From Oculina patagonica (taxonomy: Eukaryota), in NCBI RefSeq assembly GCF_052425735.1, contig NC_135761.1:22878001-22942000 (forward strand): a DNA stretch of 64,000 nt, given 5' to 3'. The notes beneath the pieces were generated by a model. The model saw nothing but the letters and a program-made list of their open reading frames with translations, was not told where the DNA came from and made no database searches. A program made the translations under genes and the position numbers. The stretch's first letter is position 1, and each line of letters begins with the position of its first letter. Positions 1 through 57,747 of this stretch are shown piece by piece.

Positions 1-207
1 TAAGATGTCGTAAAGAATATTTAGGTAGTTTTGATGTCTTTTTTAGTCTAAATCACTACGACTGGCAAAATGTTCTTTGAACTGTTTAGTCCTGTCATGT
101 GCCGTCAAAACTGTTGTGTAATTTTACTAGTGCTGCGTGAAAAAGTAAGTTCGTAAGTCTTGAATCGAAGAATCCGAAGTCCATGCCCGACGTCGGGAGA
201 CGAGTAA

Positions 208-242
208 GAAGTCTGAAGTCTGAAGTCTGAAGTCCGAAGTCT

Positions 243-290
<48 letters not shown>

Positions 291-419
291 TGAAGTCTGA
301 AGTCTGAAGTCTGAAGTCTGAAGTCTGAAGTCCGAAGTCCGAAGTCCGAAGTCTGAAGTCTGAAGTCTGAAGTCTGAAAATTGAAGTCTGAAATGTGATG
401 TCCCTCCTCGGCTTTCGTA
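208..419 (+). mobile_element. Right end of a sibling IS3EU-like element extending left of the window
   Basis: (GAAGTCY)n array followed by AAATGTGATGTCCCTCCTCGGCTTTCGTA, identical to the terminus at 34101-34129. Positions 1-207 do not match the inner TIR of the main element, so this is a related but different element. Confidence 0.75.
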
Positions 420-489
420 GAGGAGGGACATCAGATTTCAGACTTCAAACTTCAAACTTCAGACTTCAGACTTCAGACTTCAGACTTCA

Positions 490-523
<34 letters not shown>

Positions 524-559
524 AGACTTCAGACTTCAGACTTCAGACTTCAGACTTCA

Positions 560-593
<34 letters not shown>

Positions 594-660
594 AGTCTTT
601 AGACTTCAGACTTCAGACTTCAGACTTCAGACTTCCTTGATTTCCGCTGACCTCCGAGTT

Positions 661-1796
661 GTTGAGTTGTTAGATCAGGCAGATCCACTATTTAAGTAGT
701 TAATGTGAGTATTGTAGATGTTTGTTTTGTTTCAATTAAAAAAAAAAAGATCCGCTATCTAAAAAGCCGGCGTAACGGCAGAACGAGAATCGGCGTAACG
801 AGATTTTTTTTTTCAATAACTTAATTAATTTATTGCTATGAACAAAATTAATTTAATAAATTCCCACCTTGGAGACCTGCTGACAGCGGTACCTGGAACC
901 ATTTTTTTTTCTTTATTCACACAAAATAGGCCGCAACATCGTTTACGGCTTATACATGACCTCTGGACTTAATTACGTAAAACTGGACAAACAAACAAAC
1001 AAACAGTAAATATATTTCACAAAATAAAGGGCATGCATATCTTCTTAATCCTTCTAGATCGATCTAGAGCCAGGATTTCGATTTTATTTCGAGTGAGGAT
1101 TTCAGGGAGAAGGTCAGTAGCACGACTGCCCTTTGGACTTTCTCGCCCCGATCGAGACAATGAAACGTACAAAGCCGAAGCAAGTCAATGAAGCCGTTGG
1201 AAAAAATGGAAGGGCCTGAGAAGTTACTGATTTCGTAAGAAAAAGAAAGAAAGAAAATGAAACGCCCACAACAAGGGGTATTTTTAGTTGGTCACCTATC
1301 CAAGTACTAATCCCGCCCAACAGGTCTTAATTTCGGCGATCGGACAAGAACCGTTGCTTTCCTTGTGGTATCAGAAAGAGCGCGTAAATCAGCTAATAAA
1401 AGTTAAGTCCAGTTTTAGCAAGAAAGTGCCAAATTGTCCAAAAGATCCATTTAAACCAGGAATGTCTTTTTCTCTAGTTGCATAACTCTTATAACCCTTT
1501 GTCTCGTGTGACTGTACAGAGGTCATGTATAAGCCATAAACGATATTGCGGCCTATTGTGCGTGAAATAAAGAAAAAAAAAATGGTTACAGGTAAGTGAT
1601 AATTAATAAATTTAATTTTGATCATAGCAATAAGTTAATTAAGTTATTTTAAAAAAATCTTGTTACGCCGATTCTCGTTCTGCCGTTCCGCCGTTCCGCG
1701 TTCCGCCGTTACTCCGATTACTAACAACCGGATCTGACTTTTTAGATAGTGAATCTGACTTTAAATAGTGGATCTGCCTGATCTAACAACTCAACT
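661..1796. mobile_element. Non-autonomous inverted-repeat element (~200-bp imperfect TIRs) nested in the left TIR
   Basis: GTTGAGTTGTTAGATCAGGCAGATCCACTATTTAA (661) vs TTAAATAGTGGATCTGCCTGATCTAACAACTCAAC (to ~1795); further inverted matches at 775-860 vs 1600-1690. Absent from the right TIR. Confidence 0.8.
1259..1376 (-). pseudogene. Diverged 5S rRNA-derived sequence
   Basis: Minus strand reads ATACCACAAGGAAAGCAACGGTTCTTGTCCGATCGCCGAAATTAAGACCTGTTGGGCGGGATTAGTACTTGGATAGGTGACC...TTGTGGGCGTTT, colinear with metazoan 5S including A-box- and C-box-like segments, with many substitutions. Confidence 0.75.
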
Positions 1797-3829
1797 ATCG
1801 CTTAAGAAACCGTTCAAAATTAAATCGGGATATAACCGATATCGATAATTCAATTGTCGAGGTCGGAAATGAATTATCGTGGTCGGAAATAGTCCCGACC
1901 TCGATAATTCCTCTTTTTCTCGGGTCTGAATTAATTCCGATATCGATAATTTATTTGCGGGAGTTGAATTATACCAGGGTCGGCTATAAATTTCTGGGGT
2001 CAGGTTTTCATGCCAGGGAAGGGGAAAGCCTTTTTTTAATTCTGACCTCCGAAATTTTTTACCTATTTTCGATATCCGAATTTCTATTACCATGTATAAC
2101 TCAATAAATACCGGTGTCCATTTATGATTTTGCGATGGGGGTGGGGGTGGAGGTGGGGGTGGGGGTGGTGGTGGGGTTGTGCTGTAACCGAGAGTAAAAA
2201 TGGATATTCAACCCCTTTCCTCTCTTTGTTCTTACTATCTTTTTAGTGGGAGGGGAGGGGGTAAGGGGGTAGTATAATGACGAGAAGTATCTTTGCCAAA
2301 AACGATGTTACAAATTTCCCTAATGTATTTAAAAAATTACAAGAAAGCTAGTCTAAGAACGTTGCCATTAACCAAATATATGTTATTTTCTCTTTTAAGA
2401 AACGATTTCTACTTTTTCCAGATAAGTGTCCAAAAAAACTTTTACGGCCAAAATGTGCTGTGTTGATTCTTTCACAGAACAATAGCAGATACCGATTACT
2501 TCTTTTTTGTTTCTGGTGTGTTTTTTATGAAAAATAAGCTGAATGTTGAAACTTTTCCTTAAATTCCTCAAAAAATTTCGCCAAAGTTCGTTAATCTTCC
2601 TTTTTTGGAATTTAAGCATAAGGTTGGACTTTTTGATACCTATTGTAAATGCGAACAAATGCTATGATGCGTTGTGATATCTCGTGATACCTCGTTATGG
2701 CTAAGACAGTTGGAAAAGTGACCTCTTCAAATTTGTTATCCTTATTTATTCATTGGAAGAGAGCGCACTAGTCGTCCAATCTTATCTAAAGACGTAAAGG
2801 ACGCCGGGCGGACCGAGGATTTGAAATACTTCTCGACTCTCTTCTCAGCAATGTTGTGCTAAGGGGTCTGCTAACTCAAGTAGAATGCCAACTCTCAGGC
2901 CGCCTTTTTATGGGCCAAAAATTTATTTGTCCAAATTCGAGTTTCCGAGTTTGTGCATGAGGTTTTCATTTCTTTTTCAGTAACAAGACGCAACGGTTAA
3001 CAGTTTTAAAATATTTATTTACCAACTCTTTGCTACAACATCAATAAAAAGGTCAAACAAAACGTCTGCTAAATACCACACATGTGCATGAATAGGGTTT
3101 TTCGCACACACACACTTATTGCATGGTAGGCCTTACCAGATTGTGCGCGTAAAATCTCTTAAAGGGTTCTCACTGGGATGCCAAAATGTAGCTTACCCCC
3201 CCCCCCCTCCCAAAAAAAAAAATCCAAAATCCAAAAAGTTACCCCAAAGTTAATGCAATTTGCCCAAAAGTTGGCAATCTGGAAAGGCCTACTCATGACT
3301 TAACTCGGATTTGATTCGCCATACTATTCAACACACTGATTTGAATAATTAATAATCCTAGTTGTATTTGTTTCAATTTTTCTGGATTATTTCCGATGTT
3401 TTAACAATAAAAGATGTAATAGATACTGGAAGTAAAACATCGCTTCTTAGTGATCATCTTCGTGTTTATTATGTACCTCATTATGTTAACATTTTCGCAA
3501 TTCGCAACTGTAACTTTGATTTGATTCTTTCAACCTTTTCTCACTTTAAATAGTTTAATTACGTAAAAATGCATAAAAAGCATAGCATTGTTAAACTCTG
3601 AACTGTAACTTCCAGTGGTTTCCCAATTATCACTGCAAATTTTTACTTGCAACTCCTCTTGAGTAGTAAACTCTTAAGTATTGACATTTTTTCTTAAGTA
3701 TTTGCATAATAATCTGTCCCTTTAATTGAACTGTCCCTCTAGGGAAGACTTCATTGCATATCAAATAAATTCATTATTAAATTCAAACTGGTGGCAAGTC
3801 CATAAACGTTTCTTTTTAGATGTTTGCGT

Positions 3830-6800
3830 TTACATCGAAATGTCAATTTTTTCGATGAAAACTTTGATGATCAACCAAGCCCTTTCTTCTGCTCTTTCTT
3901 CCAGGGTCTTAAGTTTGATTTCGGTTCCAAACATCTGCCCTTCTTTAATTCTTTCGTCTTCCAAGGTGAAGACGTCATCCCCGTCCTGTCCGGCAATTAA
4001 GAATCTGCCAAATTAAATTATTAAGAGGGTATATTAAAGGGGCTATGTCACGGTATTTAAGTCATTTTTCTGATTGCTTTTAAAGCTAAAGAAACCTGAT
4101 CAAGATAATAGTTTTCCAAGATAGGAAAACATCAACGGAAAGACAAAACCCCGAAAATAATAAAGGATGGTTACAAACTTAAAGCAAGTGTCATTTTTTT
4201 CAAGTTGACTTGTCCGTGTCGTAGCCCGTTTAATAGTCAATTTTATCTAGGTGGTTTAAATCATACAGGCTAATAAATCCAAAAAATGCACAACTGATAT
4301 TTATAAAATCATAAACAGGCAAGGTTTTTTAAAATATCTTTATATATCTTTAGAAAGCCTTCTAGTGCAAATTTTGTTAGTACTGCTAATTCTAATTCTT
4401 AGCTCGTTCAGCAATAAATAGAATGCTTGTTCTATTAAGGTGCACGAAATTATTTCGAACTGTAGCTTACTCGTCAAAATGACATAACTTAAATTACAGT
4501 TAGTGAAAGTTGAAACTCACCTGATTGCAACTCTAATCGAATTGACTGCTGACCTCAACTGTAGGTAGAGACTGCAGTTTGGATTATTAATTTTAAGGAC
4601 CATCCTCCATCGCTTCCCATCCATTTCAAACACATCACTTGTCATTGGTTCTTTATTCATTTTTTCAGCTGCCCTCTCTTTAAAGCTGTCTATCGTCCAC
4701 GAAAAACAACCCAGGGACAATGCTGTTTTTTTTAAAAGGGCCTTCTTGTCCTGCAACATTCAAATTGCGAATGAGCTCTTAGTTCTCTAATTCTTTCGGC
4801 GTGTTTGCTTAAGCGAACAAATTCAGATTTCCCAAGGCTAGTGTCCTTTAGTTAGATTTTGTTTAGATTTTCTTATGCCCCTGCTTGCGCTGGCTGTGCC
4901 CAATAAATATATTTTGCATAACTTACTTTGCTTAAAAGGGCTTGCTGCAGAGCTGCCCTTTCCTCAAGAAGAAGAGCGACGTGCTTCTCAGCGTGATCTC
5001 GGTTGTGCTTCTCCGTGCTCTGGCTGTTACCCCAAAAGTTACAACCAACAATACTGCACTCTCGCTGCCTCATTTCACAGGCACTAAGATGTACTTGCAA
5101 TTCTTTCCTGTAGGTAAAAAATTGTTGATGTTGTTGATGGGAATGTTAATGAGACCGATTAACTTGATTACCGTTGTCTTGTTAACATCCTGGCTAAAGT
5201 GATTATAATGCTCTTCTTCAAAGAAGCAGTGATAACTCGAAAAAACAAGCTTTGAATAACAAATAGTGGCATAACTTTACTTTAATCGTGTCTTGTTTGT
5301 TATACTCTGTAACTTCATTGCAACATTTCTTCCACTTTGCCCAGTCTCTTAGCTCGATCAGCCTTCACTATTTCTAATTGACAGTGCTCGGTTTTCCACT
5401 GTTATTTTTTCCATTGCAAGTATTTATAATTTTGTGAAAATAAAGATTGTAGGAAATAAAGATTGTTGTTGTAGACTTGTTGTGGAGAACTATAATATTA
5501 GATAGGGCTTGCGCACGCGCTATGTTATCATATTTCTCATATAGGATCATACACCTATAAGGGTTGGCGAAAAAAAAAAAAATTGCACGCGACAGGACCG
5601 AATTTGTTGCGTGCACTTTTGTCCTTGTTATTGAGTTTTGCAAATTCTTGTAAAATTCACTATGGCTAAAGGTAGCTTCCACATGTCCAAAGAGAAAGAA
5701 AACCCCCTACCATTCGGTCTTGTCGCGTGCACTATTGTAGTTCTTTCCGTTAATCTTTCGATTCTCAAAATAGCTGTATACAACGCGCTCGTGGAATAAC
5801 TGTTGAGTGTACAAGGGAAAGTCTCGATCTTGTTAATAGTTGGCTCGCACGGAGTGTGGGATAGTGTGATAATGCCCTACAATTAAATGAGTGTGAGCTG
5901 TATGTAATCAATTAATTATTTTTCTGCTATCCTGACGAAGTAAACGACTTGCTAGACACAAACGCCACGAGCTGCTGCGATTTACTAGATAAGAAGTCTG
6001 TTTTCGTCGTTTTTGCTTAAGCTCCCGGCTAGAAAATGATGAAAAAAATGAACTGTTGGGCTCAAGTCGTACTTTTTTGGATATTGCTAAAGTCATTCTC
6101 GTTGAGGTCGCTCATTACAGTATTAAAAGCACGTTAACAATAAATCTTTTTTGCTTAATTACGGTTGTTTTGGTAGTGTTATATTTTGTCAGCACAACAG
6201 AAAATTAAGCGTTAATCTTAATCTTTGAATTATCCCAATAATATCTCAAATATTAAACTAATCTTCAAATAGTTGAGCAGATAGAAAAGCCAAAATATCA
6301 TGATCGAACCGAACTGATTATAGTAACAGGTGCGCACCGAGCTAAATGTTGTGCTATATTGTGCTGGTATCCGGTCGCTTCGTTCCAAGGTTACTTCGTT
6401 CCAAGTCACATCGTTCCCACTGTTGTTCAGATCGTTCCCCCCAAAAAAATTCACATCGTTCCAACTAAAAGTTACTTCGTTCCATCGAAAGATTCGATCG
6501 CTCCAAAAGAAAAAAGTTAGATATAAAAGACGATCCAAGTCATAAAAGGTTTTCAACTCAACTTATTTGCGTTTGATTTACCTAAGGCTCAAGGCTAAAC
6601 GCATGTAAAGGAGTTTATAGCAATTTTCTCACTTTTAAAGCCACACGCAAAGTGCGAACATATGCTAATTGGAGGTGTGATATTTCATTAATTGCTTGTT
6701 TTAAGAAACGCAACTTCCATAGTTGATTACTCGTTGCTGTTCTGTTTCACGTTTATCAAACGGCAAAGTAAGACGTAAAAAAAACTGCATTGCTCGTATT

Positions 6801-7827
6801 GAACAGTCGATCGCATGGATTACAAAATTTAACAACATCGAGTAGTAATGTTTTCAATAATGTTTCCTTATAAACATTCTCTTTAGGAAATTAATATAAC
6901 GCTCTGACTTTTCGATGGAACGAAGTAACTATTATTTGGAACGAAGTAACTTTTACTTGGAACGAAGTGACTTTTTTTTGGAAAGATCTGACCAAAAGTT
7001 AGAACGAAGTGACTTGGAACGAAGTAACCGTGCAACCTTTTCTGCCTTACCTTTTCGGTCGCAGGCTACACTTCAACGGACAGCTCATCGTGGTCTCTGG
7101 GCACATTTGCTCAATGTGCACGTCTTCGTTAGCAACAGTTGTGTCGCCGTAGCACTTTTCACAAGAGATTATCCTATATAGGCACTCCTCGGCGTGGGTT
7201 CGCTTATCCTTACGTTTCACCGTTTCTTTGCATCCCTCATTGTAGCATTCCCGCTCTTCTTCCGGACATTTATGTTGAATTAATGCTTCTACTACGTCCT
7301 CTCGCCCGCAAAGGTTGCACCTCGCGCGTATCTGCGCAACGAGCTTTTTCACGGTATAATTCGTCTGGGAAGTTCCTTTTATAATATTTCTGCAGTACGG
7401 ACATTTTTTAATGGCTTCTTGTCTGACTCTAGAAACACAAGAATTGCAGAATGTGTGCCCGCATTCGGGCAGGATGACCGCATCCAGCATGAGTTTATCG
7501 CTGCAACAAAAATCAATGTATGTCACAACTGATTTCAAAGTTACATTGTGCATACAGCATTTATTTATATCTTTTCGACCATCAGTTTCTTATTTTGACA
7601 AAACCATATCATTCGCTTGAACTTGTTGAAAGTGTCAGCAAAGTCGCCAGTTATCTATGCTTAAACGCTCTAATTGTTGAAGTCTTGCGCGTTCAAAAAA
7701 ATAAAAAAACACTGCATGTTTTACTTAACTCTTATCTCCTTGTTGTAAAACAAATCTAAGTTATTACTTACCAGACATAACACTGATAATCGCCAGAAAC
7801 GTCTTCGATTGGAGTTAAATTTTCCAT
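3830..7827 (-). CDS. TRAF-like E3 ubiquitin ligase (C3HC4 RING + TRAF-type Zn fingers + coiled coil + MATH), 363 aa, 5 exons
   Basis: Exons 7827-7772, 7500-7051, 5107-4927, 4750-4521, 4004-3830; all GT-AG and phase-consistent (1092 nt). RING CYVC...CGHTFCNSC...CPYC; Zn fingers HKCPEEERECYNEGC and HIEQMCPETTMSCPLKC; MATH-like FSWTIDSF...SDVFEMDGKRWRMVL...SLYLQL. Confidence 0.88.
6372..7030. mobile_element. MITE with subterminal (GGAACGAAGT)-type repeats in TRAF intron 2
   Basis: CGGTCGCTTCGTTCCAAG... arrays at the left and the inverted ...CTTGGAACGAAGTAACCG arrays at the right. Confidence 0.75.
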
Positions 7828-8628
7828 GAGAAGACTTGCTTTAGATTACTACAACTCTTAGCTGCAACTGTCTGTTGGGCAGTGATCGATTGTGATTTAT
7901 TCGCGAGTTTGATTTTCCCGTCAGGACCCCTGGGACTACTTAAATTTAGTAAATACTTGCTAATTACCAGCCTCTTATCACACACAGCATGATGCATCAG
8001 TTATATAACGATCTTCAAAAACGATTAGCTAGTATAAAGATATGTGACTTCAAATACATGTTTTTTCCTGCAATGACATCCTATTTTCGCTAATGTACGC
8101 TTTAAAAGCCAAGAATTTCAAGATGAAACACAAAGACGCTGGCAACGTATGACAATAAAAAGCAATTGAAATGTGAGATAGTCATCGCGACAATGCTTTT
8201 TTCACGAGGTAAACGGATCCAGCAGTCTAGAGGAGTGTGCTAGGGCACTTGAGATGCCGTCGTATTGAATAAATGTTGGAAAACCTTCCTTAGGCCTTAA
8301 GCCAAAATAGCGGCAAAACACGAAATTTTCGTGTGTGCGTTGAAAAGTGCATTTAAACGACAGTAGAGTTCGAACTAAGGCTCCTAGTTGAGAAAAACTT
8401 CAAAAGATTGTATCTTTCTGGATACTCTTTCACGAGAGTGCAAGTAGATAAACATACGCGTCGACCAAGCAAGAAAGAAAAGAACGAAAAACTTTTCCAA
8501 TGATTTTCAAAATCATTTTTTGTTGCTTTTGCATCGAAAGAATATGAACAAATGTATTTGCTAGTCGGAAGCCTCAAGCAGAGCCATGCCGCCCGAATAC
8601 TCACGGAGCTTCTACCGATTTCGGTCCT

Positions 8629-9624
8629 GGGGCCCGTTTCTCAAAAGTCCCGAGAATGTTTCGGTCTCGAAAACTTTTCGGGGCTGTTTTCGGGCGCGTT
8701 TCTCGGGTTCGGAAAAACGTTTCTCAAAAGGTCCGAAAGAGTCCCGTGTTTTTCGGGGAGGTTTTCGGGATTTGTAACGCAAGAAATAGCGCGTGCTTCA
8801 ATTTTCCAGCCTGTGATTGGTTCAAACATTGCAATTGACTTAGCACTGAGTTGGGTTTGTCACGTACGCATCAAATTCAAAACTTTTTCGAAGAATCGTC
8901 TGCAAAGTTGTACAGTTTCAGCAATGTTTATTTTTTAACACTGATTCACCTCTGGGCTACTTAATGTACGGCAGCCCTTGATGTATGTGTTTTTAAAAAG
9001 CGTTTCTGTTTGTTTAATTTTGTTTATTCGCGGCTTGTGAGTTACGAAGCTCGCGCTACAAACAGCCATTGTCTTGTTGTTGAGCCTTGAATTTGGTTGA
9101 ATAAAGTTACTTTTGGTTGAATTCTTCTCCATCATTGTCGCTCAGCACTTTGACGGACTTGCTGTACATACACTGAATGAATTTCGGAAGTTTTTGTAAA
9201 CAATTTCAGGCGGAAAAAGTCGGCGATCAGGTACGTTTTTAAACCGCGCTACGTTCTCTTCGCGAAGTAAAAGTTCTTCTTGGCGCGCCGGAGTTTGTTT
9301 TGAAATTTGTCAATTAAACAACCTAATTCTGCTAGACTTTTTTCTCTCTCACATCCTGTAATGTTGTCCTGTTCATACAAGCCTTTCACCGCTCTTTGTT
9401 TTCAAAAAAGTGCTTCGGAGATGCAATTTTATAGCGACAAAATAAGTCCCGAGAAGTGTTTTCGGAAGGTCAAGAGCTCCCGCAAAGTTTACGGGTAAAA
9501 TGAAGTGATTTTCTCGGGCACGAAATGCTCGGGCGTTTTGAGAAACACAAAAAAGAGTTTCTGGAGCTTTACGGGACCGTTTTCGGACCCGAACTGTTTT
9601 CGGGACTTTTGCGGAACGCGCGCC
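8629..9624. mobile_element. Non-autonomous PIF/Harbinger-like TIR element
   Basis: CTG-GGGCCCGTTTCTCAAAAGTCCCGAGAA ... TTTTCGGGACTTTTGCGGAACGCGCGC-CAG; repeated TTTTCGGG subterminal motifs; CWG flanks. Confidence 0.65.
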
Positions 9625-10997
9625 AGGGCACCTCTCCTAGATTCGCCACTACTACCCCAAATTTATTTTTTTTAAAAATTCCATGTTCAGTCTCAGTTAT
9701 GTTTGCCCAACTCTGCTTCCTACATGGCGGCTTTTATGACGAGAAAGACTATACATTTAAAGACCCTCGGAACTGACGAAGTTGATTTTATGGAGAATGT
9801 GTCCAAAGTATCGATACTTTTCAACATTGTCAAAATAATGATAATGATAATGAATTTATATAGCGCATTTTTCATGTGCATATGTTCAAATGCGCTGTAC
9901 ACCAGACCACAACACCGGGAGCTTCGTGTCCTACTCTTTTCGAATAGTGTGTGGGTTCTCAAAATACCGGTCTCTCTAATATTTGGTATCTAATATCGGG
10001 CCATCCTTCTGGAAAAAGAGGGTTTTTTTTTTTTTTTTTTGGGGGGGGGGGGGGGGGTTGGGCCAACCATGTTAAGTACGTTCGCGCCAAAATTTTCTTG
10101 TCGATAGATTGTTGCTGGGGTCAGATAATGAGTCACTTGTGTCAGAAATGCACAAAAAAAATGTGGTCGCCGACTTCAGTGCGCGCGCTCAAAGTGTGAC
10201 GTGTCATGGCATTGCGTGGATAACGTGAGCTGTATTGATGCGAATAGAAAGTGAACATAGATTTTTTTAACCAAACTTCGCCTATTAGTTTATTATATTA
10301 AGTGAACTTAAATTTTGACATGAAAAAGGGGGTCTCCACATCGGTTTAGGAGTAGGAGGAACTTGTATATTGCATATGATTTCTTTAATTCCTTTGAGAG
10401 TACTGGAAAGTACACGTTTTTAACGATAATTTTTTTTTTTCAAACATAGGAATTGATCTCTTCATTTTACAGAAACAATTCGATCATTAAACCCAAAATA
10501 TGAGAAAAAATTGATAGGTCACTATACTCGTCTAAGAGAAAGAGACAATTAACTCCTCTCGCGGAATATAAGCCGCATAGAAAAAAGCCGCCATTTTGTT
10601 TATGTGCGCGGGCTCGCGCGCGCTTATTACGCGTAAAATTCTGCGCAGTAAGGTTGCGCAATGCAATACAGGGGACGAGATTATACCGAAGATTGGACCT
10701 TTTTAATAGTCCTTTAGTTGAAAATTCGAAACACAGGAAGCTAGAGCCCTTCCTCGGTGTTATGAGAAAGCCATGAAACATACGTGATTACGGTAGGTGT
10801 CAATTTAAAAACTTTTTTATTCACGAGGTTTTAAGTCGTTAAGTCTTACAATTAGAGTATCAGTTTAAACTTGATGATGTGGCTTTTGTAGTAAATGATA
10901 CGCAAATCACCCAACCATATAAACCTTAAAAGGGACCATTCTTAAATGTTTTGTTGATGGCGAAATTTAAACAATTTGGTTCACCCACAGCAGGTTA

Positions 10998-11235
10998 CCG
11001 TATTTTCTCGATTAAACGCCGGGCCCCGAATAAACGCCGGGTCTCCAAGTTGTATTTGAAAATAAACCCCTTAAACAATTTTTAAAGGTTTAATATGATT
11101 TAAAAACAATGTCTAATTATAAAGCTGCCAAGAATAATGAATAAAAATCGTTTCTTAGAAACATAGGGCTTGAAAAAACTTCTATCGGGCCAAGTTTGAA
11201 ATAAACGCCGGGGGCGTTTAATCGAGAAAATACGA
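10998..11235. mobile_element. Tc1/mariner-type MITE (same family as 63568-63829)
   Basis: TA-CCGTATTTTCTCGATTAAACGCC ... GGCGTTTAATCGAGAAAATACG; near-identical to the copy at 63568. Confidence 0.8.
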
Positions 11236-11649
11236 GAACCCATTTGCACTTTGATTTTGAAAGACAATTAATAGTGCCCTCTTCCCAACAAAACAGTTGA
11301 TGTTTTTTATTAGATAGACGTCAAATCTTTGAGAATTAGCAATGTGATTGAGCCATTTAATGGCCCAATCAGACATTGCTAATTTTGAAAATATTGATAC
11401 CTGATCAAGATGTATCACAATTTTTCATACGATCAGTCCATTCCTCAAATGGAGAGGTTTAAAATGCTTGACACAAAATGATAAACAGAACATTAAGGTA
11501 CAAAGATGTGTAGAATATCTTGTTGTTTAAAAAAATTCTGATGTACAGTTGAACCCCGTTATTTCGAACCGTCAGGGGAAACAAAAAATAGTTCGAAATA
11601 GCGGGAGTTCGAAATAGCCAATAGTAAATGACTGAAGGGCAAATCCAAG

Positions 11650-14050
11650 GGAAACGGGTTGTCCCTACTCTTGCCTAACCCTAACAACAGTCTTTTGGCT
11701 ACAACTGTTGCACCATTTTATTTATTAAAAGTAGCACTTGTTAATGTCTTAGTCATCAATGTGGTTATAATAGTTATCATGGTAATTATCAGTAGCAAGA
11801 CATCAAGTGCATTATGGTTTGGATTGTTAAGCCTCTACCTGTAAGTACTTCACATGTACTCACTTTGTGTTTGTCTTTTTTGCTCTTTTGTTTTTGTTGA
11901 CTTTCATCGAGTCCTCTTTTTCCTTCTCCCCCATTCTTCTCCTTTGTTTCTTCTCCATTCTGTTTTTGCTGTGTTTCCTTCTCCTTTGTGTGATAATCCT
12001 CACCAACTGACATTAATCAAGCAGTAAGAGTGTAAGTAAGAGTGATTAAGACATATTCAGGTCAAAGCCGAAGCACTCCAATGCTAGGGGGGGGGGGGGC
12101 AATATATTTCACAGCCATATCTAGTGGAGAAGGGGGGTGGGGGAGAGGAGGGGTGCACAAGGACAAATAAATTTCTAACATAGAATGTGATTTTGCTGAG
12201 CTATTTCTCTAGTGTATGGTTACCACAGGTTAAGAAAGTTTGTGGGAATTTATAATAAATTTCTTGACCATATGCGAAAAGTCAAAATTGTATTCTGAGT
12301 TTGGAGAAATTGAGAGAAATTGACGATTGAAGTGAGGGAGAGCAAAACTGATACTGCATGTACATGTTCCTTGCAGCTTAAGGGATTTCAGAATGTCTTG
12401 CTATATTGCAATCATGCATCTGGAAAGTATTCTGTGAACAGCATCCATCTATTTAAACATGCTACTCACTTTAACTTTCAATAGTAAAGTGACGGACTCG
12501 ATCTATAGATCTCTAGTTAAGGATGTTGCTGAATCAAATGAAATGTTGCTACAAGACGCAGAGACAAACAGACTAATACCTAATTCAACTGTTGAGTTTT
12601 GCCCTTCAGTTTCAGGAACAGTTCTTCCAAATGAAACCTGAAAAGATAACAGCAAATTGTGGAAGTAAAATCAGATAAAAATAGTTGTTCAAACAAAAGA
12701 AATTTGTTAACATCTGTATACTGAAGATTGTTTCTGCACATTATGTCATTATAATAGTTATCATGGTAATAATTATCAGTAGCAAGACATCAAGTGCATT
12801 ATGGTTTGGATTGTTAAGCCTCTACCTGTAAGTACTTCACATGTACTCACTTTGTGTTTGTCTTTTTTGCTCTTTTGTTTTTGTTTACTTTCATCGAGTC
12901 CTCTTTTTCCTTTTCTGTGTGATGTTTCTACCCCATTCTTCTCCTTTGTTTCTCCTCCATTCTGTTTTTGCTGTGTTTCCTTTTCCTTTGTGTGATAATC
13001 CTCACCAACTGACATTAATCAAGCAGTAAGAGTGTAAGTAAGAGTGATTAAGACATATTCAGGTCAAAGCCGAAGCACTCCAATGCTAGGGGGGGAGCAA
13101 CTTTTTCCACGGCCATACCTCGTGGAGGAAGAAGCCGGGGGGGGGGGGATAGGTGGTGTACAAGGAAAAATAAATTTCTAACATAGAATGTGATTTTACT
13201 GGGCTATTTTTCTAGCGTATGGTAGCCACAGGTCAAGAAATTTTTTGGCAAGTTGTAATAACTTTCTTTTCCAGTCAGAATCAATTCATAATCCCTCTAG
13301 GTCATGACAATGATGTAGTCACCTTTGGTGTCTCCTTAAATTTAACCACCAAATTAAAGGGTGACTTGTTTAAGGTCTCCATTCACCTATTCAAACATGC
13401 TACTAACTCATTCAAAAGTAAAGTAATGGACTCGATTTACAGATCTCCATTTAAGGATGTTGCTACAAGACACAGAGACGAGCAGACAAATACCTGATTC
13501 AACTGTGAAGTTTTGCCCTTCAGTGTCAGGAACAGTTCCTCCAAATGAAACCTCCTGAATAGATAACAGCAAATTGTGGAAGTATACATCAGATAACATA
13601 GTTAGTTTATAAAAAAAGTAATTTATTAACATCTGTATTCTGAAGATTGTTACTGTTCATTAAACTACTTTCTATTCAGTGTGCTCTAGCTGGCTAACCA
13701 CTAACCTTTATTAAACTTAATCCTTATCCTAAAAGCCATCTTTTGGCTAGAGATATTGCACACCACTTATCAGTTGTTACATTTGGAAGGTTATGTGTGT
13801 TTTCAGACATTAAGTACATTATGGTTTGAAAGTACTTTACATGTACTTACTTTGTGTTTGTTTTGTTCATTTGTTTTTGTTTTCTTTTTTTCCCTTTCTG
13901 GCAGTCCTTCCCTTTTTCTTTTTTTACCAGACATTTCTCCTTTTTGCTTTTTTTCTTTTCTTTTTTTCTTCCATGGCATCATTCTCGCCATCTGACACTG
14001 TCAAAGTACATGTAAGCAAGTAAAATTGATTATTTTGAATCTTTTTAAAA
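11650..14050. repeat. Three ~1-kb tandem duplication units, each carrying a K/E-rich exon (two also carry a short exon)
   Basis: 11765-12240 is near-identical to 12750-13265; 12440-12740 matches 13380-13660; a diverged third copy is at 13790-14000. Confidence 0.85.
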
Positions 14051-17000
14051 AGATAATTATTATCCTAAACCTAAATCACGACTTGCTAAGGGTTTAGGAG
14101 TAAATAATGTTCCAGACCCCTTCTTATTAGTGCACCAACTGGCTCCTCCCATTTATTTTACTGACCCCATTGATTTAAAATAAACTGGGGAATGTAGGAA
14201 GGAAACAGAACTGGTCTGTAAGCAAGCTACCCAGCATCAGGAGCCTTTATGACTTCTGGATGCTTCCCCAAGGAGTGTGTGTAGTCCGCATAAATATATA
14301 AATATGCATGTCATTTGCACTCATTCTTTTCTAGGTCTTTGATGGCTTTTCTTGTTGAGCAAACAGATGAGAAAAACTTAAATATTTTTCTTACTTGCTA
14401 TTAAAATAGAAATTGTACAAGTTTGCAATGGAACAACTGAACCAAAGGATTGAAGAATTAGCAGACTGTCATCTTGGATTTTAGGTAGGCTTACTTGCTT
14501 TTGTTTAAAACAGGCCTTTAAGGGATTTTAAGAGAGGTTCGCTTAAAGAGCCTGTGTTTTGTCGACATCCTTAAGCTTGAAATACAGTGGAACCTCAATA
14601 AAACAAAGGGCCAAAGAACTGGCAAAATATGTTTGCTATAACAAGGTTTCCTTATATCAAGGTTCTTTATTATTATTTCTGGGGTTAAGGATACCATTAG
14701 TTAATTAATATATTGAGGACTTCACTATTTGGAGGTTCATTTAATCGAGATTCCACTGTAAGGGATTTCAGATGTCTTTGCCAAGTGATTAATGCCCTCA
14801 TTAGTCTTAGAATTATTTTGTGAAATGATCAGTCTTTATCATTAATCACTCTTAGTCAATTTATGTGATGCTCAAGTAAATTTAATTTAATGTGGGCATG
14901 CAATGCATGCAAGAAATATAAGGTCTCTAGAGAATAAGACCGGTTTTTTTGATAACCTACATTTCAAGTAATACAAATGTTTATTAAACAACAATAAACA
15001 GGATGCAAATAGTTATAATCATCTAAAAATGATTTTAACACTAATGTTGAAAAAAAACAATATATATATGTTAAGACAAAAAGGAAAAACAAAGAAAGAA
15101 AACAATTTACAACTGTCTGCACAGTCTAGTATTTGGGGTTCAATTGTTTTTTGTTTTTGTGTTTTGATGAGTGCAAATTTACAATTATTTTCTTCCCATT
15201 TTACAAATCATAATCAAATGAAATGGTGCTGCATTAGACACAACGACAAACAAATAAGTCATATATAAGCACCTGTTAAATCAACTGTTTGGTTTTGCCC
15301 CTTATTGACAGGGTCAGTTTCTTGATCTAAAACCTATATGTAAATAAAAACAACACATTTATTAGTTATCACATTGTTGAACGGGTTATCACAAAGTGTA
15401 AGGCGAGGCATGCAATCAGTTCCTGTTAGGATCAGCAATGTCGAAATCATCAAGTTTGTAGTAAATAATAAAGATGGCAAATTTTAACCAATTTTAGATT
15501 TTAGCCCAACCGGTATCTGGGTGGCCATGGGTTTGATTCCCGTCGGGGACTCAGACTTTTTCTTTGTCCCAGGAGCTATAGAGTTGAATTGTATCGTTAA
15601 AAAATCATCATGCTTACTTCTTCTGCTGCAATCATGATGGCTGCCATTTCTTTTTCAGTCTACAGGAAAGATAGGTTAAACAGATTAACAAATAAACAAT
15701 CGGTAGCCCAAATACATAAAGTGAGAATGTTATGGGGCAAAATACTTTTACTGAATGAAAGAATGGGTCCACCACAAATATGTTAAGGCCACCTTAAATA
15801 AGGACAGACAACTGCTCAAAGTTAATTCTTACCTTTTCTACAAGTATTACTGCCTCACCAGAAGGAGGTATGTTGTCCTTTTGTGAGACAACCTCCTTGG
15901 TGACTTTTCGCTCAAGGACAAAATGCGCTGGTTGATCTTCTTGGCTTTTTAGCCAGTCATACACTTCCTGTGATAAAAAACAAATACAAAGAAGTAACGA
16001 AAAATTAATACTTGCAGTAGCTACAATAACTGTGGGCCATTTTTTATTGTTTTCTTGATAAAATATCGTACTCTGAATAAACCATGGTATCTCATAGATG
16101 CCGGATCAAAATTGGCTGGGGTGTATTTTTAGTCTACCTTGTAAATTTGAGAAATGAGATGTGCAAAGGAAAAGGCTGATGTACATGTAACACAACTTGG
16201 ATGATGTTAGTGTTTAAATTAGTGTTGTTGTGACTGAGTTATTATTGTTAAAAATTAATAACAGTACTGTAATTTACCTGGTAAAGTCCACCTTTAGAAA
16301 AGTTTGACTTTAATTGACCACTAGGTGTAAAAACTTTCACCTCAGTGGTTTCAGATGTGTCTTGATGAACTGCTTTTTCCTGCGTGAGTAACAAAAAATT
16401 TGTTAAAAAAACGAATTTGACTATTCTTTCAGCAAAAAAAATCTTGTGTCTCAACAATACTGTGACTCACAATTGCTGTACAATTCATGTTTGCAAATAA
16501 ATTGGAAACACATTGACCAAAATATGACATAATGTGCCAAATGGCACTATCGGACATTAAAAGCCGGGTTAACACAAAAAATAATAACAAAAATTCTTTA
16601 AAACAGATTTTTTAAAAATGAATTATCTAGGCAGGTTAAAGTACACTGGAGTGGACAAATGCCATCCAATGTATCCAAATAAATGACATTTGTCATTACC
16701 CCTCCCAGTATGGAATTACTTCCTCAAACTTACTTTGGAGACATTTTGTCCACTTTTGATTTTTTGTCCTTCCTTGTTTTCTTTTTTCTGAGTGTGTAAA
16801 CAATAAAAACTATAGTTAATTTTTGGGTTACAAACTTATAATTTTCTTAAAACTAGTAACTTACAGAATCAAGTAATGAACTAAGGACCGTCCCTGGAAA
16901 TAGCCACTGAACCTTAATAAGCACCACAGTGAGGACCCTTGTATGGTAAAGAATTCAATTCACAACAAACCAACTCTAAAAATAGCAGGGTTTTTTTTTT

Positions 17001-20000
17001 CATCAAAAGCAATGTTCTGATTTATTTTTCTTTTCAAAATTCAGCTGCAATAATGTGCTCTGCTGGACTGGGTACTGTCCCTGAAAAATTGCCAGTGACC
17101 ATAAATACGCACCACAGCGAGGACCAAATGCAGTACGTGTCCAAACGATTCTATTTAACACAAAAATCACAACAACAACTCTAAAAACAGCAGTTTTTAA
17201 AAAATGAATCATCTAGATAGGTTACATGCAATCCAATGTATCCAAAAAAATGACATTTGTCATTACACCTCCCAGTATGGAATTACTTCCTAAAGCTTAC
17301 TTTGGAGACATTTTGTCCACTTTTGATTTTTTGTCCTTCCTTGTTTTCTTTTTTCTGAGTCTGTAAACAATAAAAAAGATAGTTTATTGTTGGGTTACAA
17401 ACTTATAATTTTCTTAAAACTAGTAACTGAACCTGAAAAATTCAATTCACAACAAACCAACTCTAAAAATAGCAGGGTTGTTTTCATCAAAAGCAATGTT
17501 CTGAATTTTTTTTGACAGCTCAAAGTGGTTATTTTTTCTCTTCAAAATTCAGCTGCAATAATGTGCTGTGCTGGACTGTGTACTGTCCCTGAAAAATTGC
17601 CAGTGACCATAAATTATACGCATCACAGTGTGGACCAAATGCAGTACGTGTCCAAACGATTCTATTTAACACAAAAATCACAACAACAACTCTAAAAACA
17701 GCAGTTTTTAAAAAATGAATTATCTACTAGATAGGTTACAGTACACTTCAGTGGACAAATGTCATCCAATGTATCCAAATAAATGACATTTGTCATTACC
17801 CCTCCCAGTATGGAATTACTTCATCAAGCTTACTTTGGAGAAATTTTGTCCACTTTTGATTTTTTGTCCTTCCTTGTTTTCTTTTTTCTGAGTGTATAAA
17901 CAATAAAAATATAGTTAATTGATGGGTTACAAACTTAATCGAGAATAAAGATGAAGTATTTAACATGACAGGAGCATGGGATAAAGAAAAATTCTTAGTT
18001 CCCGACGGGAATCGAACCCATGGCCTCCCAGATACCGGTTGGGCGCTCTAACCTACTGAGCTACGAGAGACTCATTGTGAGCTGGGCCATTTACTAGGTT
18101 GATATGTGACACACGTGTCCTGCATAATGCTAGGATCAGCAATGTCGAAATCATCAAGTTTGTAGTAAATAATAAAGATGGCAAATTTTGACCAATTTTA
18201 AATTTTAGCCCAACCGGGATCTGGGTGGCCCATGGGTTTGATTCCCGTCGGGGACTCAGATTTTTTCTTTGTCCCATGATCGTGTCATGTTGGATACTTC
18301 ATCTTCATTATTTATTACCGAGCTTAAAATTTACCATCTTTATTATTCACTACAAACTTATAATTTTCTTAAAACTAATATACTTATAAATGGAATCAAG
18401 TAATGAACTATGGACCGTCCCTGAAAATTTGTCACTGACCCTTAATAAGATCCACCACACCACATTGCAGTTCTTTTGTCAAAAGCAATGTTCTGATGTT
18501 CTACAGCTCAAAGTGATTATTAATCCAAAATTTTTGCAATATATAGCTCTGCTGCGAAGGCCAAAAATCTCAAATAAGCACTACACACAAGGGAATAAAA
18601 TTTACTTTGCATCTTTTCAGTCCTTAAATTCAACATATTAAAACAGTTCATTTCCCAGAAGATCTGTGAAAGGAAAATTACTTTAAATTACGTCCCCTGG
18701 TTATTGGGGTGTTGTTAATACCCTTTGTGGCCGTTTTCTCTAACATGGACACTAGACTACAAAGTGAGTTTTAGTGTACCTTTAAGGCATCAGCCTTTTC
18801 CGAAAGGACAAGATCATTTTCTTGCTTTCTCTTCAGATTTCTTTCCTCTTCTAATTGTTTCCTGATTTGTGGTAAATGAAGTAAATTGTTAGACATGTTT
18901 AAGTCATACATGTGATGTTAACTTAAGTCAGTAACTTATTTTTTTTTTTTTTAAGTGTTTTTGCATTAAATACAATGTACGTTGGTCTCAAATGCAATAA
19001 TGTTAAGTTAAACTGTCACTAACGTAGAAAACACCATAGGTACAACAGGTGGAAAGAAAAACCTCCTTACTGGTGTAGCTCGGCAACCTCGACAGTTTCT
19101 TTGCTTCTTTTCAAGGCTTCCAGAAAATACGCCTGGAGGTCAGATACATCTGTGATAGAAAAATGTCACAAAAGTCATGTATCATTAGGCCAGTGTGCAC
19201 ATGTAATTTGGCAAACATGAACTGTAATAATTTTGCATGTTGTATGCCACATTTCAGAGAACTGGTCACCGTAATGTTTACAAACAACTGATACAGCAAT
19301 GTTAACAATGTTTTGCCCTAGCCTCATTGAACATGTGTGTGATCCCTCTATATTCATATCTCCTGTTATTCTAATATTAATTATTATGTACTCACCTTCA
19401 AACGTTTCAATAATGGTGGGTTTTATTGACCCCCGCAGCGATGGGCTTACCAGTAAAACCTGGGGATTTTGAGTTGTCTGGCTCCCCAGAATATGTATTG
19501 CTGAAAGATAAGGAAAACATTGTATTCATTATTTTAAAAAAACAAAGTATTTTAACCCTACAAGTTTTTTTTGCTTTCCTTAGTGGCCATTTGGCCACCA
19601 ACTAGACAACAGTAACTCAAGTTTGGTCGCGAGTGGTAAATTATATTTGCTAAGTTAAGCTGATGCTTCCTATCCTTTCTTACAATTTTAGTCACAAGGC
19701 TGGCAACAGTGGTTCAAATTTAGTCACCAGGTCCAAAATTTTTATTGCCATGGCAAATTAAATGGTCTCAACTTAGAGAGTTATATTTTAAACAGTAGAT
19801 ATCAATTACAAATTGCTACTACTTGTACATTAAAGATAAAGGGATAATAAATGTTTTGCATTAGGACATAAATAGTCACTTGCTAGTTGTGATAGCATTG
19901 TCGTAAGCTCCAAACCACCATTCCAAAAAGTAAAACTGTTTTCTCAGCTGTTTAAATCCATACATACCGGTACTTAGCTTGTATAAAGCAACCTTAAATA

Positions 20001-23000
20001 CAAAATTAATTACTGTGCATGAACTGGCAATGTATTCACTTAACATGAGTCAGAAACTTTTTCTAAGAATTTATGTCATGTAAAAATTGCATGTATGCGT
20101 ACCTTCCATCCCTTCACTGGACTCACTGCTTGACAACCAAAATAAGGGCTCTTTAAATGTGGCTATAAGTTCACTCCACATGCCCACACAGGTCTCATTG
20201 AGAGCACTTCAAAAAAAAAAATGAAACAATTATGAGACAATCTCAATATTTTGTTAAGGAATATTGATAATCATAAACTAATAAATAAATAACGAGACTG
20301 TGTCATGCATGAGTTAAGTATCTTTTATCAACTTTTGCCAAATACTCACTTTGAAACTTAATGTTATCTACAAAAATATTACTTCTATGGATCTAAATGA
20401 CAAAAAACAAGCAAAAAAGATTAACTTTGAAAACTGTTCAGCCCAACAATATTTCGAACACGGATATCACAATCTGTTTCAACCTTCGTCGCTTTTGGGC
20501 ATCGTTACCTTTCTTTGTATTTGTTGTATTATTAATAAAAATGTTCCATTTTAATCTAGGTAACTGAGATTAAAAGATTGAATCGAATTTTAAAGCAGAA
20601 GCAGTGAACTTTGGCTAATGGTCTTTAAAGGGTTAACTTAAGTTGAATTTTTTACCCTAACATTTTTTTTTTCCTCATCAGAGAACTGCCCACTTTGTTT
20701 GGACAGAAAAAGGACTGCCGGCCTACATTCGCCACGGATATGATGACAAAGCTGGAACAACAAAGTGATAAAATGTGAGTTAGAAATAAAGTTTTAAATT
20801 GAATTCTGTCTTTCATTTGGGTCTGGATAATCTGCGAGCCAGCGAGCCATTTCAGTTAGCCTAAATAGCACATTGGTTAGCCTAAATAGCACTTCGGTTA
20901 GCCTAAATAGCACTCTGGTTAGCCTACAGTTAGCTAAGGTAGCATGCAGTTAGCCTTTTATTGGGATTAGGGATTTCTGGCTCGCATGCCTTGCGAGTCA
21001 TGCGAGCCATTCAGGTTAGCCTAAATAACACACTGGTTGGCATGGCTCACTGGCTCGCATATTATCCTAACTCCTTTCATTTAGTGATTCCTGTGATGTG
21101 AATTATGCATGGGGTTAATGTTACTGTAATATGTATTATACAATTTAAAGGTACATGTCATTCATTACCCATTTTTTACGTTATTATTGCTGTAATTGTA
21201 CCAGAGTCCTTAGAGGCATGTTAGATAGCATTAAGAAATTCAGGTGTGATAAAGACCAACTAAAATTACCATAGGTTACAAGTCTTCAATAACTGTAATA
21301 TATGCATATGTAAATTTCCAACCACTCCCATGTATATAGGTTAATCAAGTACAATTAAATCAGCTACCTTTTCCGTGTTAAAACCCCACCCGGCCTTATA
21401 TTACTTTCAGTGAAGGTTAATTATTGTTAAAAATTTTGGCTGCAATTTGAAAAATGTTTTGGTACACACATTATTTTTGGTGAATCCGCCACTAACTATA
21501 CAAACATGTATATATCTGGAAAGGTATCAAAATGTAAAATAGAAATATATAATCCAAATGTATTTAACACTTTAAACTTACACTTTGGAAGGTCAAACCA
21601 ACAAATGGTATGCCATCAGCAATCTTCGCTCTTTTGGCCAATATAAGGTCATCAGTAAGATTTGCATGCAGCAGACCTATAAAAATAGAAACTATTACAC
21701 TATTTCTAAATAAGTTAATACTTCCAACATTTCAATTTTGGACCCATAAAGCCAAAGCTTATCTTTGTTTCTGTGTCACATTAAAAGCTGCTATACAGTC
21801 CTTATCTCTAGATCTATTAAGCGGCTACCCTCCATTAAGCAGCCACTTTCCCAAATTATTTGTCACTGGACTGCAGCTAGCGCTGTATTTGTTACCTCTA
21901 TTCAATGGCTACCTCTATTAAGCTGTCACAAGTGTATTATTAAATATATGGGTTTTTACCTCAATAAACCGGCCAGCAAGTTTCTTTCCAAGTGCAATGG
22001 TGTCAGAGGATATATATCTCTGTATATCTTCAATGAAATATCTCTAGCTAAATTTTATACAAATTAACTGTTGATGCGAAAAGTTGGAGAGTTTGTTACG
22101 AGGTTCACGATTTGATTGTCTTACTCGCAACACAATTGGATACTTCGTAACGAATTCCCAATTTCCCAACGAACTTCGCAACACAGCACAGTAAAGTTAT
22201 TTGACATCAACTGGAATTGGCATGTGGGTGATTCATCCCTTACAGTACCTTGATGTTCAAGGCCGTGGTCAGACAGTTCTGGTAAAGTTAAGCCCACTGC
22301 AAAAAAAATGTTTAATGCGATTACATGAAGTTTGATACAATAAAAATAATTATTTCTTTCTTTATTCTAGTAAGTTTTCGGTACACAAATTTGCATGTCT
22401 CACAAATGTATGTATGTGAGAAGGCCCACTTACTCTTTAAAGATGTATTCTCTTCCTTTCTGTGCCTCAAGTATTTAACCTTTAGTTGATACATCACAGA
22501 TGTTTGTATTTGAACATTGCATGACTCAACCAGCAGAAAACTACATATAGTTATAATGAAAATTAATTATAACTTAAAGATAAACTACATGTGAATACCT
22601 GGTAAACAGTCTTCGTCTAATCTAGGCCCAAAGTTGCCTTAAAAAAGGAAACAAAATTTTGTTATACTATAAAAATACAGTTCAAGTACACGTATGCCAG
22701 TACCGGTAAAGTAAAATAAGCTGTGAGTTTAAATTGTAAAGTGTTATAATTTACCTTTGATACAAACTGCCTCTTGGCTTTGTTGCCCTGGAACAAGACA
22801 AAGATAATCTCATAAAAATGAATTTTATTATTAAGCTTAATGAACTAAAATATTAATTTTTGTGGATTTTATGATATGAATTTTCTGCATAATGAGTACT
22901 AACAAAGAGAATATACAGTGAATACAGTTTAGGATGAGTAGATCTTATGTCAGAAAAAATATTGACTGGATTTAAGTGCACGAGCATTCATGAAGTAATT

Positions 23001-26000: not shown

Positions 26001-26722
26001 GAAGTGCTGTTTTAAAAAAAATATTCTGGTACAATTTTTGCATTATTATAATGCCATTCAGTGAATAATTTTACCATGACACACCCCTAATGCAGTGAAT
26101 TTTTTTCCTGAACCCCCCTTTTTGACATGTTGAAAAATAGTGACCCACCCCAAATTATTCATAGCCCACCTCCCCCCCCCCCCCCTTGTACTTTATGACC
26201 AGTCCTTAAGACCAACTTTATTACTTCTAGTGTGTTGAAAAATACATGGGTCTCCTGGTTTCCCGAGATCAATAGATTATTCTAAAATTCTAAAACTTCG
26301 CGTCATGTTATGTTCGCGTCACTTTATTTTCGCGATTTTATTTAGTGTCGCGAAAATTTCATGTAATAAGCTAAAGGTACATCAAGTTACCTGCAATTCT
26401 GAGGAATTTCTCTTTTCTCCCTTTTCAGGAGCGCCAATAAGTTCTCGCCCTTGAGTTCTTTCGGGAATTTTACCTTGGAGGACGGCAAAGAAGAGAAATC
26501 TTCGGCGTTTTCATGGGGAAGCCAGACAAAAGTTCTGGTGGGCTTGTTGCCTGGTCTCCCCTTGCTGGGCTCAGTTCTTCGACCTTGCAATTGGTTGTCT
26601 GTCTCGTTGAACAATGGACCAAGTTCCCTAAGATCTTCATTAGATTGGTTCTCCATTGCAACAACAGCTTCGGCCATTCTCTGATTAACTTCACCGTAAG
26701 CAAGGTCAGGATCCTCAGACAT
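11864..26722 (-). CDS. FAF1/FAF2-like UAS (thioredoxin-like)-coiled coil-UBX protein with K/E-rich repeated tail exons; 3' end and two frame junctions uncertain
   Basis: Exons 26722-26391, 24219-24005, 22787-22755, 22637-22599, 22296-22249, 21676-21582, 20751-20656, 20206-20103, 19500-19396, 19149-19071, 18861-18780, 17887-17834, 17360-17301, 16787-16734, 16379-16278, 15967-15833, 15659-15618, 15333-15273, then repeated exon pairs to 11864. UAS-like PFVGLTFQSLCHHIRGECRPAVLFL...PLFWLSSSESSEGMEA...PTIIETFE; FAF-like coiled coil EEERNLKRKQENDLVLSEKADALK; UBX-like VKVFTPSGQLKSNFSKGGLYQEVYDWLKSQEDQPAHFVLE. Apparent +1 shifts at the T10 run 20663-20672 and in the 13851-13991 exon. Confidence 0.65.
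14585..14758. mobile_element. Tc1/mariner/pogo-type MITE
   Basis: TA-CAGTGGAACCTC ... GAGATTCCACTG-TA (TIR with TA TSD). Confidence 0.75.
16570..17937. repeat. Three ~550-bp tandem units, each with a phase-0 exon (KKENKEGQKIKSGQN[V/F]SK)
   Basis: Repeated CTTACTTTGGAGA..TTTTGTCCACTTTTGATTTTTTGTCCTTCCTTGTTTTCTTTTTTCTGAG at ~16730, ~17297 and ~17830. Confidence 0.9.
17938..18350. mobile_element. tRNA-derived insertion with internal inversions and 10-bp TSD
   Basis: TACAAACTTA duplicated at 17928-17937 and 18351-18360 (single copy in the paralogous tandem units). tRNA-like A/B boxes on the - strand at 18000-18063, with an inverted copy at ~18205-18260. A fragment of the same family is at 15425-15570. 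Confidence 0.8.
20825..21067. mobile_element. Small MITE with internal 21-bp tandem repeats
   Basis: GGATAATCTGCGAGCCAGCGAGCCAT vs ATGGCTCACTGGCTCGCATATTATCC; repeated GGTTAGCCTAAATAGCAC units. Confidence 0.7.
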
Positions 26723-27781: not shown

Positions 27782-28159
27782 CAGAGACAAGAAAAGCAAG
27801 GCTGACACTACGTAGAAATGAAAAAACCTTAACGGGACAACGACATGATAGAGTCCAAACTGAAAGTCAAAAATGCAAACTCTGGACAGCTGTTTCGACC
27901 TGATTGGGTCTCTTCAGCAGAGTGTATGCCGCACAGAATAGAACAACCAGCGCAAAGACAGTTGTCTATAAAGTGCTCGTGGTCATGACAATCCGGATGG
28001 GCTCAAATTCAAACACTCGCCCATTGATCATTTCTACGTAGTGTCAGCCTTGCTTTTCTTGTCTCTGTATTTTTATTTTTGGCTGATTAGAGCTGTCGCC
28101 AGCTCCTACGTACACAGCAGCATTTTCGTCCGCGGTCCCTTGCTTTCTATTGTCACTTT
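27782..28159. mobile_element. Truncated Penelope-like/retrozyme-type insertion with inverted segment and 11-bp TSD
   Basis: TTGATTTTTTA at 27771-27781 and 28160-28170; perfect 42-bp inverted repeat 27780-27821 / 28028-28069; contains a hammerhead ribozyme. Confidence 0.75.
27879..27923 (-). ncRNA. Minimal type I hammerhead ribozyme
   Basis: Minus strand: ACUCUG-CUGAAGA-GACC-caauca-GGUC-GAA-AC-agcu-GU-C-CAGAGU. Stem I 6 bp, complete core, stem II 4 bp, palindromic stem III (ACAGCUGU), GUC cleavage triplet. Confidence 0.88.

Positions 28160-52377: not shown

Positions 52378-57747
<5,370 letters not shown>

Follow-up and report, generated by a model that had tools for sequence, protein, structure and literature searches.

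The window, by which we mean the whole 64,000-nucleotide stretch that was analysed, opens in the right end of one transposable element and passes at 419/420 into the left part of another. The terminal inverted repeat (TIR) of the first element is complete and reads ...CCTCGGCTTTCGTA at 398-419. From position 420 the sequence reads GAGGAGGGACATCAG..., and the letters that directly follow the complete TIR (GAGGAGGGACATC...) are those of a TIR without its bases 1-10. The segments 203-409 and 420-626 form an inverted repeat of 207 bp, 91% complementary, in which two heptamer arrays face each other. We thus see at 419/420 what the earlier note had described, a complete right end joined to a left end that lacks its first 10 bp, within a quasi-palindrome of heptamer arrays of ~430 bp. 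The junction region folds strongly (z = -32.7, 100 shuffles) because the two TIRs face each other.

Nested structure at the start of the window

The earlier note read the junction as a targeted insertion inside a TIR with a 6-bp target-site duplication (TSD) and predicted that CTATCC-TACGAAAGCC-GAGGAG would precede the left TAC end of the sibling element. Exactly this sequence stands at C4:22873648-22873669 (L031:5648-5669), directly before the left TAC of the inner element. The remnant lies 4.3 kb left of the window, and a complete TIR starts right after it, at C4:22873670. CTATCC recurs after the right tip of the host, at 34130-34135, and GAGGAG, which corresponds to TIR bases 11-16, is found on both sides of the inner element, in agreement with the proposed insertion. 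The 419/420 junction is therefore confirmed as a genuine nest, a TAC...GTA element inside the TIR of a sibling (Table 1). The order of events, host before inner element, rests on the logic of the TSDs.

Inner element 1 is non-coding. The host, once its two inserts are removed, is 1,654 bp long; ordinary short copies align to it at 86-90%. The element to the right of the junction had been taken for a single 33.7-kb giant, and nesting had been suggested to build giant elements. The first idea is mistaken and the second finds no support: the host of ~1,654 bp is interrupted at 1796-33855, and the 33.7-kb span is due to a 32-kb element of another family. Genome-wide searches for the remnant and the junction found no copied or moved composite. 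The left heptamer array of inner element 1 contains a near-perfect palindromic element of ~2.5 kb (L031:5725-8245), whose arms are 90% alike over 2,098 bp.

Table 1. Features of the nested elements; positions are those of the window unless a contig is named.
Feature	Position	Strand	Remarks
Host left TSD CTATCC	C4:22873648-22873653		before the remnant
Host 16-bp TIR remnant TACGAAAGCCGAGGAG	C4:22873654-22873669		before inner element 1
Inner element 1, right part	1..419		whole element 4,750 bp, C4:22873670-22878419, starting 4,330 bp left of the window
Inner element 1, complete right TIR	208..419	-	heptamer array GACTTC[A/G]; tip ends GGCTTTCGTA at 419
Inner element 1 TSD, right copy GAGGAG	420..425	+	equals host TIR bases 11-16
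Host element, left part from TIR base 11 on	420..1795		non-autonomous, ~1.65 kb; heptamer array ~428-635
32-kb element, left TSD CTCAAC	1790..1795	+	
TATCGC...GCGATA (32-kb) element	1796..33855		32,060 bp, nested in host; TIRs ~350 bp, 86% alike
Transposase gene (DDE type, spliced) in the 32-kb element	29421..32241	+	Pfam rva_4, E 5e-72; 5' exon limits inferred
Transposase exon with WHIDG	31303-31348		
Transposase exon with RTDKG and NQRIE	31473-32241		last exon
32-kb element, right TSD CTCAAC	33856..33861	+	
Host right end	33862..34129		heptamer array 33923-34104; complete tip ends GGCTTTCGTA
Host right TSD CTATCC	34130..34135	+	equals the copy preceding the remnant

The 32-kb element has TA...TA termini, a 6-bp TSD, TIRs (alignment of 353 bp) and an integrase-like DDE transposase. 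It has 31,337 of its 32,060 bp in common with a 39.6-kb copy at C3:5458465-5498034, with main blocks 96.6-99.3% identical; the C3 copy has no exact TSD. The last transposase exon shows 100% protein identity at four genomic places and had no match in a comparison with plasmids. The two copies are giant, very young IS3EU-like elements. We considered the window transposase as the enzyme of the junction family and rejected it: the gene belongs to the separate, nested TAT element. The other four ends of the TAT family lie outside elements with heptamer arrays.

Several further features were noted. On the minus strand of the 32-kb element lies a RING/TRAF-like frame (7050-7589, zf-C3HC4, E 2e-5); at 4876-5145 there is a weak Sina-type zinc finger. 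Both fall in sequence that the C3 copy shares. Of the four transposase-bearing TAT copies, one has landed within a member of the TAC family, 268 bp away from its tip. In the host of the second nest described below (L035), ~10 bp from the equivalent spot, there is a TAGG...CCTA element, which has an 8-bp duplication and which we take to be hAT-like, and the two insertions at similar spots may reflect a subterminal hotspot. The window from ~35600 to 64000 is occupied by a tandem array of 4-5 gene copies of roughly 6 kb. One exon of this array matches papain-family cysteine protease (54294-54665, E 2e-20), and a SUEL lectin exon lies at 60815-61216.

The TAC family and its coding relatives

A search of the 529-Mb assembly, the scope of all our genome-wide searches, with the 22-nt tip (TACGAAAGCC...) gave 87 matches at ≤2 mismatches, against 0 for the control. 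Sequencing runs in which the flank occurs include some labelled coral metagenome, in keeping with a coral source. With further ends found locally, 91 ends were tested, representing ~45 copies. Left and right ends could be joined in 37 pairings, 29 of them with an exact TSD; of the other eight, two are the outer pairings, displaced by the remnant, and six are copies that lack a clean TSD and were left out of the length count. The clean TSDs of the 29 non-nested insertions are an unusually even mix of 6 bp (16) and 7 bp (13). Paired copies are 0.4-6.9 kb long, most of them 1.1-2.2 kb, with TIRs of ~200-230 bp that contain heptamer arrays. Miniature versions also occur (C11:18747830-18748340, C13:23385487-23385550): one element of ~60 bp consists of two TIR tips alone, and short, degenerate TIR pairs are found clustered.

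The nested 32-kb element aside, none of the 77 rva_4 matches falls in a TAC-bounded copy, and the next nearest lies 67 kb away. Since no transposase was found in a TAC-bounded copy, we infer both the enzyme and its binding site. We scanned 60 ten-kb stretches around rva_4 matches. One relative, a 6,037-bp element at C8:29607941-29613977 (L274:642-6678), has the tip TACCGTGGCCGAGAAGGG, GACTTCC arrays, TIRs of ~305 bp and the 6-bp TSD CAACAC, and contains an open frame of 437 aa (rva_4, E 1e-36). Its tip is identical to that of the TAC family at 13 of 18 bases, and the arrays are of the same type. This element appears intact and has a second frame of 434 aa with no clear family. At three further transposase loci the tips read TACGGTGGCCGAC or TACGATGGCCCAG, and the TSDs are of 6 bp.

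IS3EU/GingerRoot elements are marked, in the passages cited, by TA...TA termini and a 6-bp TSD (PMC10045372, PMC6839031); for membership we took a TSD of usually 6 bp and accepted 6-8. Because TA...TA ends and 6-bp TSDs are the stated marks of this group, the TAC family is best filed, by its tips, its TSDs and the ends of the coding relative, as a probable non-autonomous IS3EU/GingerRoot-like group.

Recurrence of the nest at one base

A second nest was found at C4:8909254-8912854. It has the outer TSD ATCATGC, the same 16-bp remnant, the same junction and an inner element of 1,435 bp; it lies 14 Mb from locus 1 and differs from it in inner element and flanks. Genome-wide, exact matches were limited to two remnants and two junctions, with none at one mismatch; at two mismatches the counts were at control level (9 versus 11 in the control, and 14 versus 26). 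Exact 16/16 remnants thus stand at 2 of the 91 ends, and junctions at TIR base 11 likewise at 2 of 91. A scan of metagenome contigs yielded 66 ends with 50 distinct flanks, none in common with the 85 compared ends of this genome. At one of these ends, in contig L199, the 16-bp remnant is present without a mismatch; the flank is new, and the inner sequence is of a third type that matches neither inner element 1 nor inner element 2. L199 contains the remnant and the left side of the inner element, so that full nests with both inner ends number two, one being the case flagged at the outset. The earlier note had proposed counting such junctions genome-wide against chance; with a second nest in the genome and a third remnant in the metagenome, the count is far above it.

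We compared the elements involved. Inner element 1 shows no internal alignment to its host or to inner element 2. Inner element 2 has its nearest relative in a C3 copy (95.8% over 1,370 bp), and its ends are 85.6-93.3% identical to those of its host; a subterminal insertion common to inner element 2 and host 2 shows that these two are related. With different flanks, different inner elements and, where seen, different outer TSDs, the three cases are independent.

Looser searches added nothing. When the remnant pattern was generalised to related types of TIR, it returned the two known nests and two unrelated, chance-like matches only, and a scan of viral contigs gave six matches, none with a heptamer array. 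Looser junction-gap patterns were discarded: their five matches (four in the control) were the two nests, a C13 tip and two unrelated sites. A second junction-spacing pattern gave 72 matches against 57 in the control, and the seven inspected besides the two known junctions were not TIRs. Three loci are possible older relics that we did not count: C14:24332259 (17 bp, remnant-like, 14/17, no inner right end in 2.9 kb), C13:11113298 (13 extra bp, 10/13 matches) and C7:4425491 (a 4-bp insertion after TIR base 10-12). Together with C1:18005918 and C4:13277861, these are tips with 3-17 extra TIR- or junction-like bases, which either separate the tip from the TSD or fall within the TIR and are possible footprints of repair or excision.

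How often should this base be hit by chance? Under a uniform null with 45 insertions and 91 ends, 7.7e-6 matches are expected; with the flagged case set aside, one further case remains in this genome against that expectation. Over a 250-bp end, coincidence on the same base has a probability of 1/250 for two insertions and 1.6e-5 for three. If the first 250 bp are assumed to be favoured 100-fold, two hits in that region have P = 0.016, but not on one base. We also built a target profile from the 16 six-bp sites of non-nested insertions. The GAGGAG site of the TIR scored -1.1 bits on this profile (relative weight 0.49) and ranked 12th of 60 TIR positions, and CATTTC at TIR base 25 scored far higher. 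The target preference of the family is weak, and it does not favour the nest site. Self-TIR nests account for about 2 of the ~45 insertions of this genome. Unrelated insertions are present in many family copies at scattered positions, and TAC-family ends may therefore be accessible in general.

Mechanism of insertion and comparison with known systems

At both complete loci the donor tips are intact and the 6-bp TSD is present in full left and right of the insert, which is what two-ended integration produces. We think it probable that a transposase bound to the end of a resident copy positions the incoming element at a fixed register of the TIR, the register being set, we infer, by the protein on the target. 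A trans-acting DDE transposase of IS3EU/GingerRoot type would mobilise the non-autonomous TAC copies and bind the resident TIR at a putative GCCGAG-R-AG motif (bases 8-16) and the heptamer array that starts at base 18. Both donor ends would then integrate with a 6-bp stagger, one strand being cut after base 10 and the other after base 16, and gap repair would yield the TSD of TIR bases 11-16. The GCCGAG-R-AG stretch is also present in the transposase-coding relative. The duplicated bases lie in this stretch, and a single base separates them from the first heptamer (18), so that a transposase bound to the resident end most likely captures the incoming complex or sets its position.

Two alternatives deny that the nests are separate, real events. 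The junction at 419/420 lies between two arrays of ~200 bp, where repeats could mislead an assembler, and the read contigs cover the left junction only. These run contigs (X1, X2, X3) pass from unique flank through CTATCC and the remnant into 13, 30 and 14 bases of the inner TIR, with 0, 1 and 2 substitutions relative to the assembly (X3 also has a 4-bp gap), all in the flank and none at the junction. Bridging by the 31-letter rule was found at the flank/remnant boundary in X2 only and at the remnant/inner boundary in none. X1 may be the assembly's own sample; X3, with its substitutions and gap, represents another haplotype. A further contig, X16, stops at the last base of CTATCC, which may hint at a branch to an empty allele. 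A misassembly is scarcely credible: no 16-bp remnant with matching TSDs 4.7 and 38 kb away would result from a false join, let alone at two loci, and given the TSD matches and the second nest we hold it to be very unlikely. A single old nest, duplicated afterwards, or a copy that jumped into one of its own ends could account for both genome cases lying on contig C4 and for the kinship of inner element 2 with host 2 through their common subterminal insertion. Against this, flanks and outer TSDs (CTATCC, ATCATGC) differ, the loci are 14 Mb apart, and there are three inner sequences, that of L199 being a new one in a contig from another genome. We hold a single event to be highly improbable.

Two others accept the insertions and explain their site differently. 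Accessible or bendable DNA in the TIR and its array could attract many transposons, with GAGGAG as the best local site and no bound transposase. Unrelated elements in many copies, including the 32-kb element and the palindromic element of inner element 1, agree with such a hotspot, as do the G/C at both ends of GAGGAG, seen in many TSDs, and the GC-rich TSDs favoured by GingerRoot in the passage cited (PMC6839031). However, the foreign insertions are scattered whereas the same-family ones fell on one base three times, and GAGGAG is far from the best site on the family profile, which makes this explanation unlikely. In IS3/IS30-like end targeting, one donor end of a circle or dimer would attack the resident end and host repair would finish the reaction. 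IS30 has such dual specificity, inserting beside its own inverted repeats (IRs) as well (PMC9333248), the transposase class is described as integrase-like and related to IS3/IS481 (PMC10045372), and the tips at C13:11113298, C1:18005918 and C4:13277861 carry a few extra bases. Yet the cut falls within the target TIR, each of the two complete loci has a full TSD left and right of the insert, and tip-to-tip junctions were seen at 0 of 91 ends (TIR offsets 1-16 tested). We consider this route clearly unlikely. The same observations, with the target TIR split after base 10, speak against the IS911-like IR-IR junction mechanism put forward in the earlier note; for its copy-out-paste-in chemistry, or for circles, the data give nothing.

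Returning to positioning by a bound transposase, a stronger version would make it a dedicated second target pathway, in which the enzyme recognises GCCGAG-R-AG of a resident copy and inserts base-precisely in a few percent of events, across coral genomes. We are evenly divided on this version. If true, this would be a DDE transposon of eukaryotes that combines IS30-like dual specificity with a landing site of its own, and insertion there would disable or take over resident copies. A base-precise preference for the own TIR would be a natural footprint of how the enzyme holds its target DNA. It offers a simple assay, a TIR-bearing against a scrambled target, with the 437-aa frame at C8:29.61 Mb as candidate enzyme, and may point to site-specific integration that is guided by protein and carried out by an enzyme resembling retroviral integrase. 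For annotators, such junctions and split TIRs are real nests and not misassemblies.

Taken together, the three same-base cases make it likely that the transposase is steered to its own ends, a habit that we did not find described for this group in the passages cited here. IS3EU is called widespread, its structure and function largely unexplored (PMC11934779). Like IS3EU/GingerRoot elements, the TAC family has TA...TA termini, TIRs, TSDs of 6 bp and some of 7 bp and a presence in corals, with an integrase-like DDE transposase in relatives. It differs from GingerRoot, as described in the passage cited, in the share of 7-bp TSDs (13/29 versus 5/77) and in its TIRs (~200-230 bp with heptamer arrays versus 100-150 bp). 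GingerRoot is credited there with no nucleotide-specific target preference beyond GC richness, unlike TAC copies, which insert at one base of their own TIR (PMC6839031). Among the literature matches listed there was no report of self-TIR targeting in IS3EU/GingerRoot, and the passages from PMC10045372, PMC12730594, PMC6839031 and PMC11934779 contain none. In those from PMC9604107 and PMC4744444, self-insertions are mentioned and a TIR hotspot is not; PMC3261919 and PMC2909936 contained nothing relevant.

The separate ingredients are already known from the passages cited below: self-end targeting (IS30, IS911), TIR targeting (IS4321/IS5075) and self-nesting (plant MITEs). The Drosophila P element is reported to have a preferred site in other P elements, at about bp 19-26; it resembles the TAC family as a eukaryotic cut-and-paste element with a preferred site in its own end and differs in belonging to an unrelated superfamily and in being mobilised in the laboratory. 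Targeted insertion of IS911 involves a 3-bp spacer. MITEs of rice and maize insert into themselves, form multimers and nest within the same family above chance, as the non-autonomous TAC elements do, and the passage states no fixed TIR base for them (PMC5172404). MITEs are short and high-copy, unlike the TAC family with its ~45 copies, mostly of 1.1-2.2 kb, and a different transposase class. IS4321/IS5075 target the TIRs of the Tn21 family, according to a reference title in PMC11187229, and so likewise insert into the TIR of a transposon; unlike the TAC family they target another element's TIR, and the enzymes of IS1111/IS110 belong to the RNA-guided DEDD recombinases and not to the DDE integrases. 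The donor of IS30 lands beside an intact IR, forming a new IR-IR junction (PMC9333248), and IS911 shows targeted insertion at its own ends (PMC7986276). Like both of these, as they are described in those passages, the TAC family uses dispersed sites as well as the element's own end as targets; unlike them, it inserts within the TIR and has the 6-bp TSD in full to the left and right of the insert.
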